Translations under genes and position numbers: made by a program | In this document: positions 1,021 to 32,440 of the stretch, piece after piece | Numbering within the stretch: position 1 is the first letter of the stretch | Layout: every line of letters starts with the position of its first letter | The notes under the pieces: generated by a model | Database searches by the model: none | What the model saw: only the letters and a program-made list of their open reading frames with translations | What the model was told of the DNA's origin: nothing | Origin: Chiloscyllium plagiosum | Taxonomy: Eukaryota | Direction of reading: 5' to 3' | Length of the DNA: 34,230 bases | NCBI RefSeq assembly: GCF_004010195.1 | Contig: NW_025213584.1 | Coordinates: 1 to 34,230 of the forward strand

Positions 1021-2187
1021 GTGTAACAATAGGTTAGGCGTCAAATCTAGTTTGCAACATACTTTAAGTGGAATTTAAGAACCTTGGATGAGAAGAAAGG
1101 AGTAGAAGTCAATTCCTTTCTGTATGGTGAGTTGAGTGGTAGAGGGCTGTTAATCAGGTGGAAAGGTGGCTGATGGGTCCACACTGTTTTCTCACCTCCA
1201 ACCAATTAAATTCTGTAATGGGAAGGCCAGTGGATCTACCTCCCTGTCTTATTGTCATTTGAGGCCCTTTTGGGCAATGGACATTTAAGGGATTCATCTC
1301 ACTGTCACTTCTATTACAATATAGTAAGTTTAGGGATTGCTTGTTGATGGTAAGACTAGTAAAATCCATATGTTGCCTGTGGTTTCCTGGAGGTAGGGTG
1401 AGGTGTCCCTTGTTTAAAAGCACTTTGTACCTAACATTCCATCCCTGATCTCTTGGTACCCAAGATTTCCCTCCACCCTTCCTACTCACCCCTTGCCCCC
1501 ATGTGGATAGCTGTTTGAGGTATTAGGCGCAAGACTAATGTGCTCCTGCTATGTTGTGTAATATAGTTGGTGATTTATGTTGCTGCATTGTAAACAGTGC
1601 TTTCAGCTTCAGCTGTTGATTGGCTTTAGCTAATATTTGCTTCTTTTCCTTGCCAGTGGGGTGGAGCTTGTCTGTTTATGTGATCTTTGCACGATGATGC
1701 AATGACTTTAATGATTCAGCAGGAGATTTTATTTAAAAATATATTGGTTCATTTTTTTTTTGTCGATTTTGATTATTCCTCTCTAGTAGCTCATGCTAAG
1801 AAATCTCGGCACTCCTTCCCAACATTTTATACCCATTAGTGCTGATGAAACTATTGAGGTGAATATCTTCATCTTGCAAACATGAAGCTTTTTCCTGGAA
1901 GCATACCTTTGTTAAATCTGTCCTTAAGTTTTCTCTCCAAATTTCCTAATGATGCATATGTAGAATAAATCTGTTTTCAGAGCTGTTTTGAGTATTTTTG
2001 AAGACAAACAAATGTTGACGTTTTTGTGTTGTGCACACTTTATTTTCTGCTTAAAAAATTACCATTGTAATTAAGATTTATTTTAATTTGCATTAGAAGT
2101 AAAATCTCATCTTTAAAACAGGTAATGGTTATATGTTTTTTTATAATGCAAATTGTGCAGCAAAGTTTCAATTTGTTTCAATTACAG

Positions 2188-2447
2188 GGCATTTGAAACA
2201 GATTGATCCTGAGACATTTAAAGATTTTTACAACTTTTGGAAGGAATCTGAGACTGAGGCACAAGAAGTTAACCTCCCTCTGGAAGTGATAGAGCGCTTG
2301 GACAAAAATGAATGTGTTTATAAATTATCATCATCTGTGAAAACCAATTATGGTGTGGGCAAAATTGCACTGACACAGAAGCGACTGTTTCTTCTTATAG
2401 AGGGAAGACCTGGCTATGTTGAGATTGCCAAATTTAGAGATATACTG
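2188..2447 (+). CDS. DENND3: DENND3 internal coding exon 1 of 10 in window (upstream exons lie outside the window)
   Basis: ttacag acceptor and gtaata donor. Encodes (G)[30 protein letters not shown]...[42 protein letters not shown], matching vertebrate DENND3 ([17 protein letters not shown]...). Phase 1 to 0. Confidence 0.95.
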
Positions 2448-2864
2448 GTAATACTTGAGAATAATGGTTACAATTTATACATTTTTAATGATTTTGTAAT
2501 TATTTTGTCTCCTTACGTTATAGAGATGATCCTCTGTTCTACACAAGTAGCAGGAAATAGGCAACCAAAGCAAGATTGCTGCCCAATTATACAAGTCCAT
2601 GTTTTTCTCATATCACAGTTAACCAGTTATATGATAAATGAATCAAGATTTAATAGATTTGTTCTAGAAAGATAATAATTTAGTTAATTGTTGCTGAAAG
2701 AATAGTATATTTTTAACTGTATGATCTGGTCAAACTTTTTAAATTAAAAGCATTGGTCTGTTATTGGAAAACACCAGCTGTGCAATAGAATGCTTAATAT
2801 TTAGTTGACTGATCATTTAGAGCTTTTGATCTTCATTAAGCAATACATAACTGAGCTTGAAAGT

Positions 2865-12257: not shown

Positions 12258-12995
12258 CCTACTTGGAATACTGTGTCCAGTTCTGGTCGCCCAGTTATAG
12301 GAATGATATCAAGTTGGAGAGGGTTCAGAAGAGATTTACCAGGATGGTGCCAAGTGTGGAAGGTTTGAGTTAGGCTGGGAATATTTTCATTGGAGCATAG
12401 GAGGTTGAGAGGTGACCTGATAGTTGTTTATAAAATAATGAGAGGTATAGATCAAGTTAAGGGTAGTTGTCTTTCCCAAGGAGGATGGATTTCAAGATTA
12501 GGGGGCACATTTTTACGATGAGAGGGGAGAGGTTTCAAAGAGACAGGAGGCAAACATTTTTTACACAGAGGATGGTTCGCTTGTGGAATGAACTTCCTGA
12601 GGAAGTGGAGGATGCGGGCACAGTTACATTGTTTAAAAGACATTTAGATAAGTACATGAATAGGAAAAGTTTAGAGGGATATGGGCCAGGAGCAGGCAGA
12701 TAGGACTAGTTTAGTTTGGAATAATTCTGGATCAGTGGTGCTGGAAAAGCACAGCAATTCAGGCAGCATCCGAAAAGCTTCGAAATCGACGTTTCGGGCA
12801 AAAGCCCTTCATCGGGAACGTCGATTTCGAAGCTTTTCGGATGCTGCCTGAATTGCTGTGCTCTTCCAGCACCACTGATCCAGAATCTGGTTTCCAGCAT
12901 CTGCAGTCATTGTTTTTACCTAGTTTGGAATAATGTTCGGCATGGACTGGTTGGACCAAAGAGTATGTCTCTGTTCTGTATGACCCGATGACTCT
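12258..12995 (+). mobile_element. CR1 LINE 3' end (host of the hairpin insertion)
   Basis: LEYCVQFWSP, RVQKRFTRMVP, RGDL, FFTQRMVRLWNELPEEV. The 3' UTR matches the copy at 14005-14380. Confidence 0.9.
12726..12920. mobile_element. Young Penelope-derived non-autonomous hairpin element with 14-bp TSD
   Basis: Arms 12724-12793 and 12817-12886 are complementary with one mismatch. 34-nt unpaired tail 12887-12920. Flanking direct repeat TAGTTTGGAATAAT at 12712-12725 and 12921-12934. Confidence 0.85.
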
Positions 12996-14004
12996 ACACT
13001 GCAATTGGCAAAATATTATTTTTTAAAATTTCTAGATCGTAGTTTCTGAAGAAACCGAGTTGAGAATGATAAGATTTGCTACTATCAATATACTTGATCA
13101 ATATACTTGATCCTCCCCTAGAGCCTTGCTGTCCTAAGTCCCAGTAAAACCATCTGACGCTCTCTCACCCTGTTGTCTCCCTTGGAATGGCCTTCGTTTC
13201 TGCTCCCTTAGTCATAGGATATGGCAAATAGTTTGAGCTTCTCCGTCATGGACTGTTTCATAGCTGCTGTTGTACACTTTGATCAGCTGCCTTTTCGTGG
13301 GTCCTACTTTGCAACAATTAAACACAGGCATAACTTCAAGGTTTTCCTTGAGCTCTATTCTTGTTCAGTTTGGGTAGCTTTTCAATACCCACTCCTAACT
13401 ACACTGACCTATTAATGATACCCACTTTCCTGCAAGTCACCACAACTCCCAAGATATTTTCTAATCCCTGACTGCAACATGTAACTGCCAAATAACTGCT
13501 AGAGTGTGACCCGAGTTCTAAAAGCACAGGAATATCCAACTCTGCTTGATTGCTTCTCACATGGTGTCCAACTACACGGACTTGGTGTAGTTCAGTTACC
13601 TTTGCAGCACTACAGCTCAACAGCCCACTTCTGGATAGTGCTTTATTTTCTTTGATTTTCCTTAGTCCCAACACATAGCTAACCAACTGCTCCAGGACAC
13701 CCCGAGCAAGAACTTCTGTTGTTCAGTTACCTTTCATGTGGTACTTCTAAAAGGCAACACTTCTAATATAGAGTCTTTCTTTTCTCTCCCTCACACTCCC
13801 ACTGAACTTTCAGTTCCCATTCCCTTGAGCTTCTGTTAGTGACCCTGAGCAGTCCTGAGTGACCTATTGAAAAACTTTGCAAATGGTCCTTTTCCCTAAT
13901 ATGAGTAGAATTGAATGCTCCGCACAATTCCTGGAATGAATGTACTCTGAACATTACGTTTCACTGACAATGCTTGCTTACTGTTAAAATTAAATAAGGA
14001 GTGG

Positions 14005-14380: not shown

Positions 14381-14938
14381 AATGGATATAATTAGTTAAA
14401 TACAAATTTTATAGATACTCCTTTGCATATTTAGTACATTTAGAAAACTATAAAGCTTAACTCAAACAAAAACAAGTACTTGTGACAAGTAGAACCAGCA
14501 GGATTTAAGCTTCATATCATGGACATAATTTAGTGCAGATACTCTTTCTCATTCCTTTAGCTTTGCAAGGAAGGTTTCATTTAAGTCTAGCTTTTCAGAG
14601 AGTGTTTCAAGGCCAGATCAGTAAACATGAAAAACAGCAACCCCTTGTGAAGTTTCATGATCATTACAATATGGAGGGAGTTACGTAAATTCATGAAATC
14701 TCTGTTGATTGCATTTGCTATTTAATGTGCAAGGTGGGGTTTTCAAGCGTTAACCATGTATGCTACATTTTTTGAATTTTGGGAAAAAGATGTACATATA
14801 TTGTAGGTTGTACTACTGTTCTAACTCGTACATGGTATAGAATTGTTGTTAGCTCGAAACTGGAATCTTGTGGCTTCCCTAGATCTTGCCTTAGGGAAAA
14901 TGATTATTGGTCCCGAACCAAATTATAACATATTAGGT

Positions 14939-16088
14939 GGTCCTGGATGTATGTTTGCTCGCTGAGCTGGAAGGTTCATTTTAAGATGTTTTGTCACCGT
15001 ACTAGGTAACATCTTTAGTGAGCCTCCGGATGAAGCACTGCTGGTGTTTCCTGCTTTCTGTTTATACCTTTGGTTTTCTTTGGGTTGGTGATGTCATTTC
15101 CTATGGTGATGCTATTTCCTGTTCTTTTTCTCAGGGAGTGATATATAGCATCCAAGTCAACATGTTTGTTGATAGAGTCCCAGTTGGAATGCCATGCTTC
15201 TAGGAATTCTCATATGTGTCTCTGTTTGGCTTGTCCTCAGATGGATGTGTTGTCCCAGTCAAAGTACTGTCCTTCCTTATCTGTATGTAAGGATACTAGT
15301 GAGAGAGGATCATGTCGTTTTGTGGCTGGTTGATGTTCATGTATCTTGGTGGCTAGTTTTCTGCCTGTGTGTCCAATGTAGTGTTTGTTACAGTTTTTGC
15401 AAAGGTATTTTGTAAATGACATTAGTTTTGCTTGTTGTCTGTATATGGTCTTTCAAGATCATTAGCTCCTGTTTTAGTGTCTGAATAGGTTTGTGGGCTA
15501 CCATGAAGCCAAAGGGTCTCAGTAGTCTGGGAGTCATTTCTGAGACGTCTTTGTAGGGGAGAGTGGCTAGGCTTTCTGCACGCGTTTTGTCTGCTTGTTT
15601 GGGTTTGTTCCTGAGAAATTGGCAGACTGTGTTCATTGGGTACCTTTTTTGAATACACTGTATGGGTGATTTTCACTAGTATCCTCACATACAGATAAGA
15701 AAGGACACCACTTCGACTAGGACAACACATCCATCCTAGGACAAATCAAACCGAGACACACATGAGAATTCCTAGAAGCATGGCATTCAAACTGGAACTC
15801 TATCAACAAACACATTGACTTGGATCCCATATACTACTCCCTGAGAAAAAGAACAGGAAATGGTATCGCTATAGGAAATGATGTCACCACAGGAAATGAC
15901 ATCACCAACCCAAGGAAACCCAAACATATAAAATGAAAGCAGGAAACACCGGCAGTGCTTCGTCTGGAAGCTCACTGAAGATGTTACCTAGTATGGTGAT
16001 GAAACTTCTGAAAATGAGCCTTCCAGCTCAGTGAGCAAACCTACATCCAGAACCTCAACCTGAGCTACAAATCTTCTCAAAATTCGCT
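14939..16088 (-). mobile_element. Penelope-like element, 5'-truncated, with GIY-YIG endonuclease remnant and inverted pseudo-LTR
   Basis: Frameshifted minus ORFs join to ...LATLPYKDVSEM..RLLRP...KTNVIYKIP/CKNCNKHYIGHTGRKLATKIHEH (GIY-YIG). About 14939-15302 is the reverse complement of about 15674-16053. Extra ~35-nt tail to 16088. Confidence 0.92.
15972..16011 (+). ncRNA. Minimal hammerhead ribozyme-like motif in the Penelope pseudo-LTR (degenerate)
   Basis: tca-CTGAAGA-t-gttacc-tagtat-ggtgat-GAAAC-TTC-tga: CUGANGA core, stem II, GAAA box, NUH triplet, 3-bp stem I. Confidence 0.6.
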
Positions 16089-16224
16089 AACACCTATGGA
16101 CGCAATATGCTAAAACTGGCCTGAAAATTCGTGGTCCTCTCTAGAATCATTATGTAAAGTTAGCAGTTTGGCATGGGATCATAACCGCTTTCAACAGCAG
16201 ATTTGATTGGATCAAATAAAAGAG

Positions 16225-16290
16225 AAATGTCGATTCTCCTGCTCCTTGGATGCTGCCTGACCTGCTTTTCCAGCACCACACTCTTGACCA
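16225..16290 (+). mobile_element. Half-copy of the Penelope-derived hairpin family
   Basis: gaaatgtcgattctcctgctccttggatgctgcctgacctgcttttccagcaccac, similar to 12817-12877 and 32196-32257. Confidence 0.7.
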
Positions 16291-16414
16291 AATAAAACAT
16301 GGTTGAAGTTTGTTCTCATCTGCAAAAATTTCTCACTATTCCAGGATCATTTGTTTTTTTTAACAATCTATCAGTCATGTACTAAATCACAAATTGCACA
16401 CTTTACTCTGCTAG

Positions 16415-21490: not shown

Positions 21491-21527
21491 GTAGGCTGAA
21501 ACAATTACATTTTGATACAACAAAAGT

Positions 21528-21722
21528 AAAAACAAAATATTGCTGATGCTCGAGATCTGAAATAAAACCAAAAAGTGCTAGAGAAACTTAACAGGTCTAC
21601 AGCATCTCTGGGGAGAGACAGAAAACTACAGCTAACATTTCAAGTCCAGTTGAAATTGGAAAGTTAACTCCATTTCTCTCTGTACCTTTGCTGCCAGAGC
21701 TACTAAGTTTCTCTAGTGCTTT
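21528..21722. mobile_element. Older hairpin-plus-tail element (Penelope-derived type)
   Basis: Arm aaagtgctagagaaactta...cagca (from 21572) is imperfectly complementary to tgctg...aagtttctctagtgcttt (to 21722). About 40-nt tail on the left side. Confidence 0.6.
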
Positions 21723-23788: not shown

Positions 23789-25145
23789 GTGTTATGATCC
23801 TTACAGATGGTCCTACTGGAAAATCGAATCCCACTCAGAGACCTGGCTTGATAAATCACGTTTGATTTAATTTGGTTTTAACTAAGTGGTTCCTCACTAA
23901 AACATAAATTAGAATTCTGTTGCAAAAGAAATTTAGATAAAATAGAATAATCCAAATTATCTACCTCTTTATTTTTTTATTATTTTTCTTTGGCTAACTC
24001 ATTTCCTGTAACTTCTTAATATCTTGGAGTTAAAGTTTTCTTAATTTAATTTCTCTCTGCTTTTCTTTCTCCTCTCTTTCCATTGTGCTATAACTTTTTT
24101 TCTCCTCAATTTTGCATCTTTTATTTCCTTAATTCAATTTTTGTAAACTTCTAACTGTACATTAGCTAATTTCATTTGTGACATCCGAGTTTCAGATTTG
24201 CTTCCTTCCAATTGTAAATGCGGTATAAGCACTTGAAGTATCTATCCTTATGGACTCCTAATTTTAAGTCTGTCCTCAATGTATCTGCTAATTAACTCTG
24301 CTCAGCTGTAGTCAAAGGTTGTAAATAATCCACTGTTATTATATCTTCCACTTCCACAACACTCTTAGTAACTTCTCAAGCCATCATCCAACTCTGTGCA
24401 ATAAAATTCACCACAGCACAGCAAATTTGAACTCAGAGCTACTCTGTTACTTTGTCAAGAAAGACACAGATCCCTCTTAAACAACATGAATGCAGAGTTC
24501 TGGGATGAGCCTCCATTTGTTATTGCCTTTGCGAAATATCACAGGTTCAACTAGAATTGCTGCTTTTCTGAGGCGACCTAATGCTCATCTAAATAAGTTT
24601 TTAAATCCGTAGGAATGCTATTTCTGAATTCTAAGTAGTCAAGCGGGAGGCTGGAAGAACGCAGCAGGCCAGGCAGCATCAGGAGGTGGAGGAGTCAATG
24701 TTCAGATGACCCTTCTGAATTCTTCCATTGTTAAAATTTGCCTTAAATTCTTAATTTTTTCTCTAAGTGATCCAAACCATAAATCCCAAAACATTTCTTT
24801 CTCCCCTACAAATTCCATAAGTTTCTTTCATGTCATCATAAATTTAAATTGCCAAGCTTCAGGTACAAGCTCATAAGCATTAAGTATTGCCTGTCTGTTC
24901 TCACACTGCAGATTTGTTCTTTTGACAGGCTGGTATTCACAGTCCTAGTTATACCTGTCAAAATATCTTGTAACCTCTTTTGGCAACCTCATCTGCCTGG
25001 TAATCTTCTCAATTGAGGTAAAATGCCTTCCAATTCCATCCTCATTCAATTTAGGCACTAAGTGTAGACTCATAATCATTCTTCTACTAATATTTTCTTC
25101 TTCATAACCCCTCTCAAAGACAAATAGCATCAGAGATTGTAGCAA
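23789..25145 (-). mobile_element. Fragmented Ty3/Gypsy LTR retrotransposon (gag remnants and PBS)
   Basis: Minus strand LHLVPKLNEDGIGRHFTSIEKITRQMRLPKE and AILNAYELVPEA (gag motif YELVPEA). TAACA followed by AA-TGGAGGCTCATCCC (tRNA-Pro PBS-like) at about 24498-24522. ATG at 24384 is followed by E/K-rich coiled-coil-like sequence. Confidence 0.7.
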
Positions 25146-25169: not shown

Positions 25170-25320
25170 GAGCAAATTACTGCAGATGCTGGAATCTGTA
25201 CTGAAAACAACAAATGATGGAGATAGCGTCAATGGAGAGAGAGTAAGCTAATGTTTTCGAGTCTGGATGACTCTTCATCTGAGCTGGTGAAGTGTGGAAG
25301 GGGCAGCATTTATGTTGGTG
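25170..25320 (-). mobile_element. Penelope-derived pseudo-LTR fragment with degenerate hammerhead-like motif
   Basis: The tail actgcagatgctggaa is shared with the 12887-12910 family. Minus 25285-25246 reads agct-CAGATGA-a-gagtc-atcca-gactc-GAAAACATT-agct. Confidence 0.6.
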
Positions 25321-26471: not shown

Positions 26472-27640
26472 GAGTAGATTTGATTTTTTCACTTTTATTC
26501 ATTCCTCTTGAAATTACATAGTGCAGACAAAAATGTTTTAAATTGGTGCTGAAGTGGAATGATTTGGGTTAACTTGAATTGTATTATTTCCATTGCGCAA
26601 TTGAACATAATTCACTTTTTACTACACTATATTTTGATTGAATCATATATATTTACCTTTCACATAACAAATTAACCAAAGAAAAGCTAATTAGATTGCC
26701 AAATATGCAAAATCCATAGATCAGGCAGCATCTGTGGAGAGAAATGTTTCAGGACAATGACCAAACTTGCTAAGTATTTCCAACACTTACTGTTTTTATT
26801 TCAGATTTTCTGTATTCTGCATACTATTTGTTAGTATTTAATTGCAACAATTTCATGTGTAAATTTGGAATTTATTACTCATTTGTATTTTTCATGTATT
26901 CACAGTTACTAAGGGTTTTGTAGGGGTCACTCTGCAAACTAATAATTTATAAAGGGAGTGAGGAATTAAAAAAGTGAAGAAAGGCTATAAAAAGAAATTA
27001 ATTGCAATTTAAAAGCAAAAATCAAACTTGAGCTTGAAGATTAGATGTAATATAATTAATATCTCATTAATGAGCTGCTTTCAATGCTTTTTTTCTAGTG
27101 CTATCTAGTTTGTAATGCTATCTAATAGTATGTATAAGATCTGAAAATATTTATCTGATCAATTCAGTTGCAGAGGGAAACAAAACACACCAATTTTTTT
27201 TGCAAGTATTTGAAAACTACAAAATGTCAATACAACACCAAGCAGTTTTTTGAGCTTTGACCTTTAGCTGTTGAGGGGCGATTGTCTAAAACCTCTGATT
27301 TTACTGCCCGTAGCGCATACTTCCATTATTTCCATGTGTCTATTATAAATTTTAATATGTTTGATCAGACATATTTTAAATAATCTGAATATAGGCATAG
27401 AATATAATTCACTGCCTTGCATCTATTATCTGTTATATTATGCTTAACATATAAAGGCTGCTAATTGCAGAACATTATTCAACTGTTCCTAATTTTTCTT
27501 AAGTTAAAACAACCCACCTACCTCAATCTTCCAAAGAAAATTATATCATTACCAATCCCTGCCCACTCAAATCAGTAAACCTATTATGATCCTGTGATTG
27601 ATTTAATTGTACTTGACATAACACCATAAGAAAGGGATAT

Positions 27641-32010: not shown

Positions 32011-32440
32011 TTATCCAGTTCAAACTGGATGGTTGCACCTGGGCAAGACTAGAACGAGGAGGGTTTAAACTGAAATAATAGGGAGATTGAAATCTATGCT
32101 CAGAAACAGAATAGAGGGAAATGACAGCAAAAACAGAAGACAGAATGGGAAATAAGAAGAGAGCAGAGAATCCAAGGGCAAAATTTTTTTTGCCCGAAAT
32201 GTTGATTTCCCTGCTCCTTGGATGCTGCCTGATCTGCTGTGCTTTTCCAGCACCACTCTAATCTAGACTCTGATTTCCAGCATCTGCAGTCCTCACTTTT
32301 GCCTCCAAAATTAGAACATGACCACAGTGCAAGAAAATGGAACAGGACTGAGAATGTCTTTTTTTTTTAAAAAAAGTCTTCTGGCTTGGAGCATTCAGAA
32401 AAAGTGGATGAATTAATCGCACAAATTAATATAAGAAATT
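32010..32440 (+). mobile_element. CR1 ORF1 end/ORF2 start fragment, interrupted at about 32186-32304
   Basis: Decayed DG-LHLGK...EEGLN* (ORF1 esterase end) and SIQKKVDELIAQI (ORF2 start). Confidence 0.6.
32186..32304 (+). mobile_element. Single-arm copy of the hairpin family (stem-II half, arm and tail)
   Basis: ttttgcccgaaatgttgatt...ggatgctgcctga...ccagcaccact...tttccagcatctgcagtc. Possible TSD caaaatt. Confidence 0.8.

Follow-up and report, generated by a model that had tools for sequence, protein, structure and literature searches.

Insertions of endonuclease-bearing (EN+) Penelope-like elements (PLEs) have been described as carrying an inverted, 5′-truncated pseudo-LTR (pLTR) together with an optional, one-sided tail of 30–40 bp (PMC3846280; PMC8557442), and the formation of the inverted repeats is described as undefined in the accessible text of the latter source. 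Metazoan PLEs contain minimal type-I hammerheads, opposite-strand pairs of such motifs 100–700 bp apart being reported as well, and the published model of their action, a dimer formed via a palindrome, comes with low activity even there (PMC4209133). The Poseidon protein of Anolis carolinensis, a predicted dimer, cuts and extends both strands in vitro and uses two internal start sites, the gap between which constitutes the tail; the hammerhead of that element cleaves only with the protein and is dispensable for insertion in vitro (PMC11167929). The accessible part of the same paper does not apply this result to inverted repeats, the word "inverted" being used there once, of a blocking group. 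For L1, dual priming was postulated, and the accessible part of the source presents it as not validated there (PMC2837659), and non-LTR retrozymes have been reported in the one cartilaginous fish sampled (bioRxiv 10.64898/2026.07.22.740005). A literature search with subscription papers largely outside its reach returned no work joining "Penelope" with "dual priming", and another, with subscription papers mostly outside, returned none on shark PLE hammerheads and, among the 25 of 35 entries listed, none on the PLE family described below.

The window, that is, the whole stretch of DNA analysed, comprises 34,230 nt, within which the 3′ end of an old LINE, which we take to be of CR1 type, is interrupted by a 195-nt insert (Table 1). 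The insert is made up of two 5′-truncated ends of a very abundant PLE placed head to head. We read it, with a probability of roughly 0.65, as a young PLE insertion in which the two hammerhead-bearing ends were produced by two target-primed events. The identity of the element as a PLE is close to certain, and the insertion, which would stem from an endonuclease-bearing member, appears to have been dead on arrival.

Table 1. Features of the insert and of its host locus, with positions given in the window.
Feature	Position	Strand	Remarks
Open frame with DENND3-like exon	2103..2450	+	E 2.7e-41 to PDB 6B3Y
3′ fragment of an old LINE (ORF2 end plus 3′ UTR), insertion target	12261..12711	+	Paralogous window copies at 67–74% identity (self-BLAST); CpG observed/expected 0.25
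Left target-site duplication	12712..12725	+	14 nt; last 2 nt also match the element
Copy A, PLE end	12726..12818	-	Begins just upstream of the hammerhead core and reaches the tail-less end; holds left arm and 23-nt loop
Minimal type-I hammerhead remnant	12788..12815	-	Descriptor from PMC4209133
Central-junction microhomology	12817..12818	.	2 nt, AA/TT, common to copies A and B
Copy B arm, PLE end in sense	12817..12886	+	Truncated inside hammerhead GAAA
PLE tail, copy B only	12887..12920	+	34 nt; also in the unpaired relative at 32188–32304
Right target-site duplication	12921..12934	+	First 5 nt match the family continuation (3′-junction microhomology)
Rest of the interrupted LINE 3′ end	12935..12996	+	Paralogous window copies

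A perfect 14-nt direct repeat lies on both sides of the insert, and its equivalent is single, not double, in all three paralogous LINE ends aligned, so that the repeat is a true target-site duplication. The inverted arms (12724–12793 and 12817–12886) are 70 nt each, are separated by 23 nt and agree at 69 of 70 positions, the sole mismatch being 12747/12863; the tail is found on the right side alone. The arms, loop, tail, duplication and intact CpGs described in an earlier sequence-only reading were all recovered, with two refinements. Since the left duplication ends in the same 2 bp with which the left arm begins, just 68 bp of this arm lie within the 195-bp insert. The right duplication, in turn, opens with 5 nt that match the PLE family's continuation in contigs of run X5, which allows a duplication length below 14 bp and as low as 7. 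The folding energy is about −150 kcal/mol on both strands (z = −21.7; none of 200 shuffles folded equally well). No ORF is present in the insert, both copies being cut to about 100 nt, which leaves the unit as a bare hairpin. The CpG observed/expected ratio of 0.85 (10 CpG), against 0.22 for the whole window and 0.16 for the older relative at 32188–32304, shows that the copy is young, as had been proposed.

The four features of PLE insertion units that were tested were all found, namely head-to-head copies, a one-sided tail, a short duplication of variable length and a pLTR hammerhead, the last in degraded form, and the PLE origin suggested earlier is thereby upheld. Like described EN+ PLE units, the insert has a tail at one end (34 nt, compared with 31 bp in rotifer Pen2a; PMC3846280, PMC8557442), a short, variable duplication (14 bp here, 8–10 bp in rotifers), an overlap at the inverted junction and a pLTR hammerhead. 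Unlike them, it contains no ORF; membership of the EN+ PLEs is a highly probable assignment made here from the end sequence, against which counts that no ORF connects the family with a PLE protein. The pattern of an inverted pLTR plus tail is already published, and the insert is a further PLE insertion unit.

Contigs of three public runs (X1, X5 and X14) were aligned to 12480–13140 at 90% likeness; about 6% of one raw RNA run, treated in the same way, gave 0 reads. Summed contig depth over the arms and loop was about 0.4–12 million, a quantity that is not copy number, against 5–34 on the unique flank, and the PLE end family is evidently present in great abundance. Of 1283 loose ends 18 were listed, and among these heterogeneous flanks start at 12818 (142 contigs), 12886 (47), 12920 (202) and 12921 (228), with an agreement of 0.33–0.37, and these positions are the exact ends of copies A and B. 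We read 12818, just upstream of the hammerhead core, as the putative preferred 5′ end of the family, and 12886 and 12920/12921 as its two putative 3′ ends, without and with the tail. Run X5 additionally has loose ends behind 12925 (39 contigs, agreement 0.42), which represent one consensus in one run. Family contigs align through 12818 and hence through the 2-nt central microhomology. The family has at least two subfamilies: letters other than those of this copy account for 46–84% at 12772–12775 in X1 and for 24–47% in X14, and position 12877 is split at about 55–66% in the three runs. On the strength of these letters at 12772–12775 the copy falls into a minority subfamily of organism A, and the minority letters are present in both of its arms. 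No family matches were found in metagenome or viral contigs. Separately, the joints from 12813 to 12878, 12813 to 12875 and 12807 to 12875 reach a contig depth of 150–470 in organism A, above that of the unique flank. Some junction forms may have been amplified as units, given single-contig joints of depth 288–469 compared with 5–34 on the unique flank, or the deep joints within 12807–12878 may reflect a natural pairing segment upstream of the hammerhead.

The observed geometry of the two copies, their polarity, the junction microhomologies and the coincidence with the family's end hotspots point to priming at both nicks. In the order of events that we infer, the enzyme would cut both strands at an AT-rich site in the old LINE, with a stagger of at most 14 nt. 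The 3′ end of the bottom strand would form 5 base pairs with RNA immediately beyond the tail and prime at the outer start site, giving rise to copy B, and the top strand's 3′ end would pair over 2 nt and prime at the inner start site, giving rise to the tail-less copy A, probably from another RNA or another pLTR. Synthesis of copy A would proceed as far as the 5′ stop usual in the family, located just upstream of the hammerhead core, and that of copy B would end 23 nt sooner, whereupon the two cDNA ends would anneal via AA/TT and be filled in. At the right, left and central junctions the microhomologies measure 5, 2 and 2 nt, and their chance probabilities under the window composition are 0.002, 0.10 and 0.09, respectively. 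Judged from this one locus, a mechanism of two target-primed events, one per nick, stands somewhat above even odds.

Such a reaction would resemble that of Anolis Poseidon in its two start sites with the tail between them, the cutting and extension of both strands, its AT-rich target and a hammerhead just upstream of the start sites, with the difference that the Anolis start site is not homologous to the cut DNA, whereas short matches occur here at both outer junctions (PMC11167929). With L1 dual or twin priming it would share the priming from both nicks, an inverted structure within the duplication and microhomology at the outer junctions, that at the inner junction being predicted. L1 dual priming was proposed for poly(A) tails (PMC2837659), whereas both events here would start near the same internal sites, and the arms are accordingly complements of one another, not separate stretches of the element. 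This copy helps slightly in choosing among the models, counting against simple fold-back and in favour of priming at both nicks, and as one among very many PLE end stubs a single locus carries small weight, its value being that of a clean fossil of the insertion reaction. It is a tentative and rather doubtful extension that PLE head-to-head repeats arise generally from a dimeric enzyme, two RNA templates and two nicks, with short pairing between target and RNA and one start site each. Should the pattern hold over hundreds of young copies, the in vitro result of two strands and two start sites would be tied to genomic architecture, and if the model were true, an unsettled step of PLE transposition could be tested on sequence alone through loop polarity, junction microhomology and arm-specific variants.

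Fold-back self-priming, the origin originally assigned to the insert, fails in its simple form. The loop belongs to the tail-less copy A and is in sense on the strand that carries the antisense tail, and since it is not antisense there, folding of a tail-primed cDNA does not yield it; a cDNA primed without the tail could fold to give the loop, but would then have no template for the tail. The observed polarity is obtained once extra trimming is granted, in that an antisense RNA or cDNA with tail would fold at AA/TT and copy arm and tail, and the 5′ tail complement would be removed, for example by the endonuclease, before integration. Self-priming has indeed been proposed for head-to-head PLE repeats (PMC3846280) and the tail ascribed to endonuclease resolution of an intermediate (PMC8557442), and both the 69/70 identity of the arms and the minority-subfamily letters common to them agree with such a route. 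We nonetheless consider it unlikely, as it requires an additional cut exactly at the inner start site and leaves the template-like matches at both outer junctions unexplained, and as the tail is explained in vitro by two RT start sites (PMC11167929). It would also produce arms that are identical at birth, whereas their sole difference falls at a site where both letters look common. No other letter at 5% or above is listed at 12747 or 12863, although the arms are deep and listed pieces span 12863, and both older relatives in the window have T, the letter of the left arm, at the mismatch site; taken together, both letters look common in the family. An arm difference at such a dimorphic site modestly favours two templates, as envisaged for priming at both nicks. 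That dimorphism may be a property of the majority subfamily and not of the minority one into which this copy falls, and the difference could also have arisen by a transition after insertion or by gene conversion.

The sequence-only reading had further taken the insert for a non-coding mini-element mimicking a MITE, in which case the whole 195-nt fold-back would be transcribed, re-inserted by PLE proteins and spread as a fixed hairpin. Non-autonomous PLE derivatives are known, namely MRC1 (PMC8557442) and retrozymes (bioRxiv 10.64898/2026.07.22.740005), and other family junctions (12813 to 12878) do occur on single contigs with depths of 358 and 469, about 14–70 times that of the unique flank; those deep joints, however, differ from the junction of this copy. 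At least seven different centre-to-arm joints were found among the 15 of 368 listed, none of which is the central junction of this copy, and 12816/12817 is not bridged by any of the 24 contig pieces listed out of 124,623; joints with sides of fewer than 30 letters may stem from repeats, a range that includes the short sides of three joints (18–30 letters), and an absent row proves nothing. Over the 20 runs sharing words with the sequence, the word share reaches at most 0.71, with plateaus at 0.45 and 0.61–0.71, close to the words expected without those of the junction (14/31 for the family only, 22.5/31 for family plus flank); this speaks weakly against a fixed hairpin and hints that the insertion is rare or private, as contigs can drop junction words. 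A transcript of the unit would, moreover, be almost entirely double-stranded. Altogether, a hairpin that copies itself is quite improbable, and the varied central junctions together with two unpaired relatives in the same window make the insert most likely a one-off by-product. Like non-LTR retrozymes it is non-coding, hammerhead-bearing and PLE-derived, and assignment to them was rejected given its head-to-head layout and single damaged motif, compared with their head-to-tail tandems with at least two intact hammerheads (bioRxiv 10.64898/2026.07.22.740005).

Long inverted arms between copies of a duplication would also suit a DNA-transposon MITE with long terminal inverted repeats. The ends are asymmetric, though, duplication length differs from relative to relative (14, 9 and about 7 bp), the sequence is also met without a partner, in a single orientation, and a PLE-type hammerhead and tail are present, which renders a DNA transposon barely credible. 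MITEs have symmetric terminal inverted repeats, a fixed duplication length and uniform copies, and this label was discarded in view of the one-sided tail, the variable duplications and the unpaired relatives; the earlier view that the insert was retrotransposed rather than moved as DNA is supported. A fold-back artefact of assembly or library at a repeat would be in keeping with the absence of any run above 0.71 of the words and of any listed contig spanning the junctions. Yet such an artefact would duplicate flanking sequence and would supply neither a family tail nor a clean 14-bp duplication, one site distinguishes the arms, and the same type of joint recurs elsewhere in family contigs, so an artefact is very improbable.

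The minus strand across the loop retains the parts of a minimal hammerhead, with C3 at 12815, C in place of U at position 4 (12814), a bulged A at 12808, stem II at 12807–12796, GAAA at 12795–12792 and C17 at 12788. Two descriptor matches were obtained in the window, one of them this motif (12815–12788), against a mean of 0.0 matches with a stem of at least 4 bp in 30 simulated random windows. Core boxes, a bulged base between A9 and stem II, G10.1–C11.1, palindromic positions 15.2–16.2 and the lack of loop III are as in published PLE hammerheads, unlike the U4>C change, the loss of helix I at the junction and the absence from this copy of a second, same-strand hammerhead with which to form a dimer; stem II has 4 bp, against 7–8 bp in Schistosoma (PMC4209133). 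Owing to the C at core position 4, an intact CUGANGA core is not found in this copy. Changes of U4 in the hammerhead core are damaging. The accessible part of PMC3088659 gives no account of the effect of U4C. A comparison with the family for an intact CTGATGA, put forward along with the sequence-only reading, bore out the canonical letter at position 4 in three of the five listed junction rows of family contigs covering the site, the other two showing junction letters, and the C of this copy in none of the five.

One or two pairs of helix I are left before the central junction, where about 4–5 bp would be expected, and the bases from A14 to C17 (12793–12788) are paired in the long helix with a probability of 0.67–1.0, as is the ACGU palindrome with 0.88–1.0 per base. 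We infer that the hammerhead of this copy is a passenger, predicted to be inactive and unable to fold. What had been recognised as a minimal hammerhead thus stands as a remnant with U4>C but probably not as a functional motif, helix I being cut off and the 3′ core locked in the long helix. The suggestion of a dimer ribozyme via the ACGU palindrome also finds little support in this copy, with the palindrome base-paired, helix I nearly gone and the motif strand opposite to DENND3. The fold-back places a U opposite A15.1 and so mimics a type-III hammerhead with a long helix III; this candidate was rejected because a single base lies between position 17 and C3, and helix I cannot form. At the gathering score Rfam returned no family, and the 11 matches at E up to 10 did not include a hammerhead family; these were generic hairpin and microRNA models far below their cut-offs, and a microRNA reading was dismissed on this account. 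The exact hammerhead pattern was matched in neither metagenome nor viral contigs. Both changes in this copy are T>C in element sense (n = 2 transitions, too few for further reading), and A-to-I editing of the sense template was discarded as their source, T>C being the wrong direction.

The DENND3-like exon lies on the plus strand, so the hammerhead strand is antisense to DENND3 pre-mRNA; for a downstream frame, WD40 matches were weak. The long hairpin anticipated in DENND3 sense RNA is borne out by a predicted fold of −150.1 kcal/mol, and the locus is a candidate intronic source of double-stranded RNA in a DENND3-like gene; that this RNA would be an ADAR or Drosha substrate, as had been suggested, is a conjecture. 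At 12905–12923 (+), the end of the tail and the first three bases of the duplication form a pyrimidine tract followed by TAG in DENND3 sense, which we assume to resemble a splice acceptor. This stretch could be a predicted cryptic 3′ splice site, and it may mark a putative intron end in the parent element.

The locus is also a candidate recent, possibly polymorphic marker. A joint corresponding to the empty site (209-nt skip) is absent from the 15 of 368 joints listed, and the skips of 215–216 nt among them come from paralogous LINE ends. Two contigs starting exactly at 12935 were considered as an empty allele and read instead as an ordinary graph break in a repeat. Run X14 (organism B) covers part of the right flank (13009–13031) with a 2-nt deletion at 13010, and the orthologous locus may be readable there. 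A perfect 13-nt tandem duplication is found at 13084–13109, just downstream of the LINE end.

Further element ends are scattered over the window. The region 16213–16297 holds an unpaired, tail-less 67-nt stub of a related subfamily (about 16222–16288) within a perfect 9-bp duplication, which ends near the tail-less end. An older unpaired stub with tail (32188–32304, in 32179–32312) has a possible 7-bp duplication and shows stem II, arm and tail in natural order on one strand; an 8-nt inversion of stem II is another possible reading of its 5′ end. At about 14939–16087 lies an older head-to-head element of another family. Its arms, at 15302–14935 (minus) and 15673–16061 (plus), agree at about 84%, and a minimal hammerhead is located at 15975 (+). 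As in the insert, the spacer, here of 370 nt and with decayed frames, continues the left copy, and only the right side is extended, by about 30 nt. The decayed frames resemble a GIY-YIG endonuclease end, and the endonuclease-like frames matched no Pfam family. A possible decayed 12-bp duplication flanks this element at 14926 and 16088 (8/12 match by eye). Further short, decayed fragments resembling element ends are present at 21510–21620, 24650–24680, 25175–25194 and 26765–26806.
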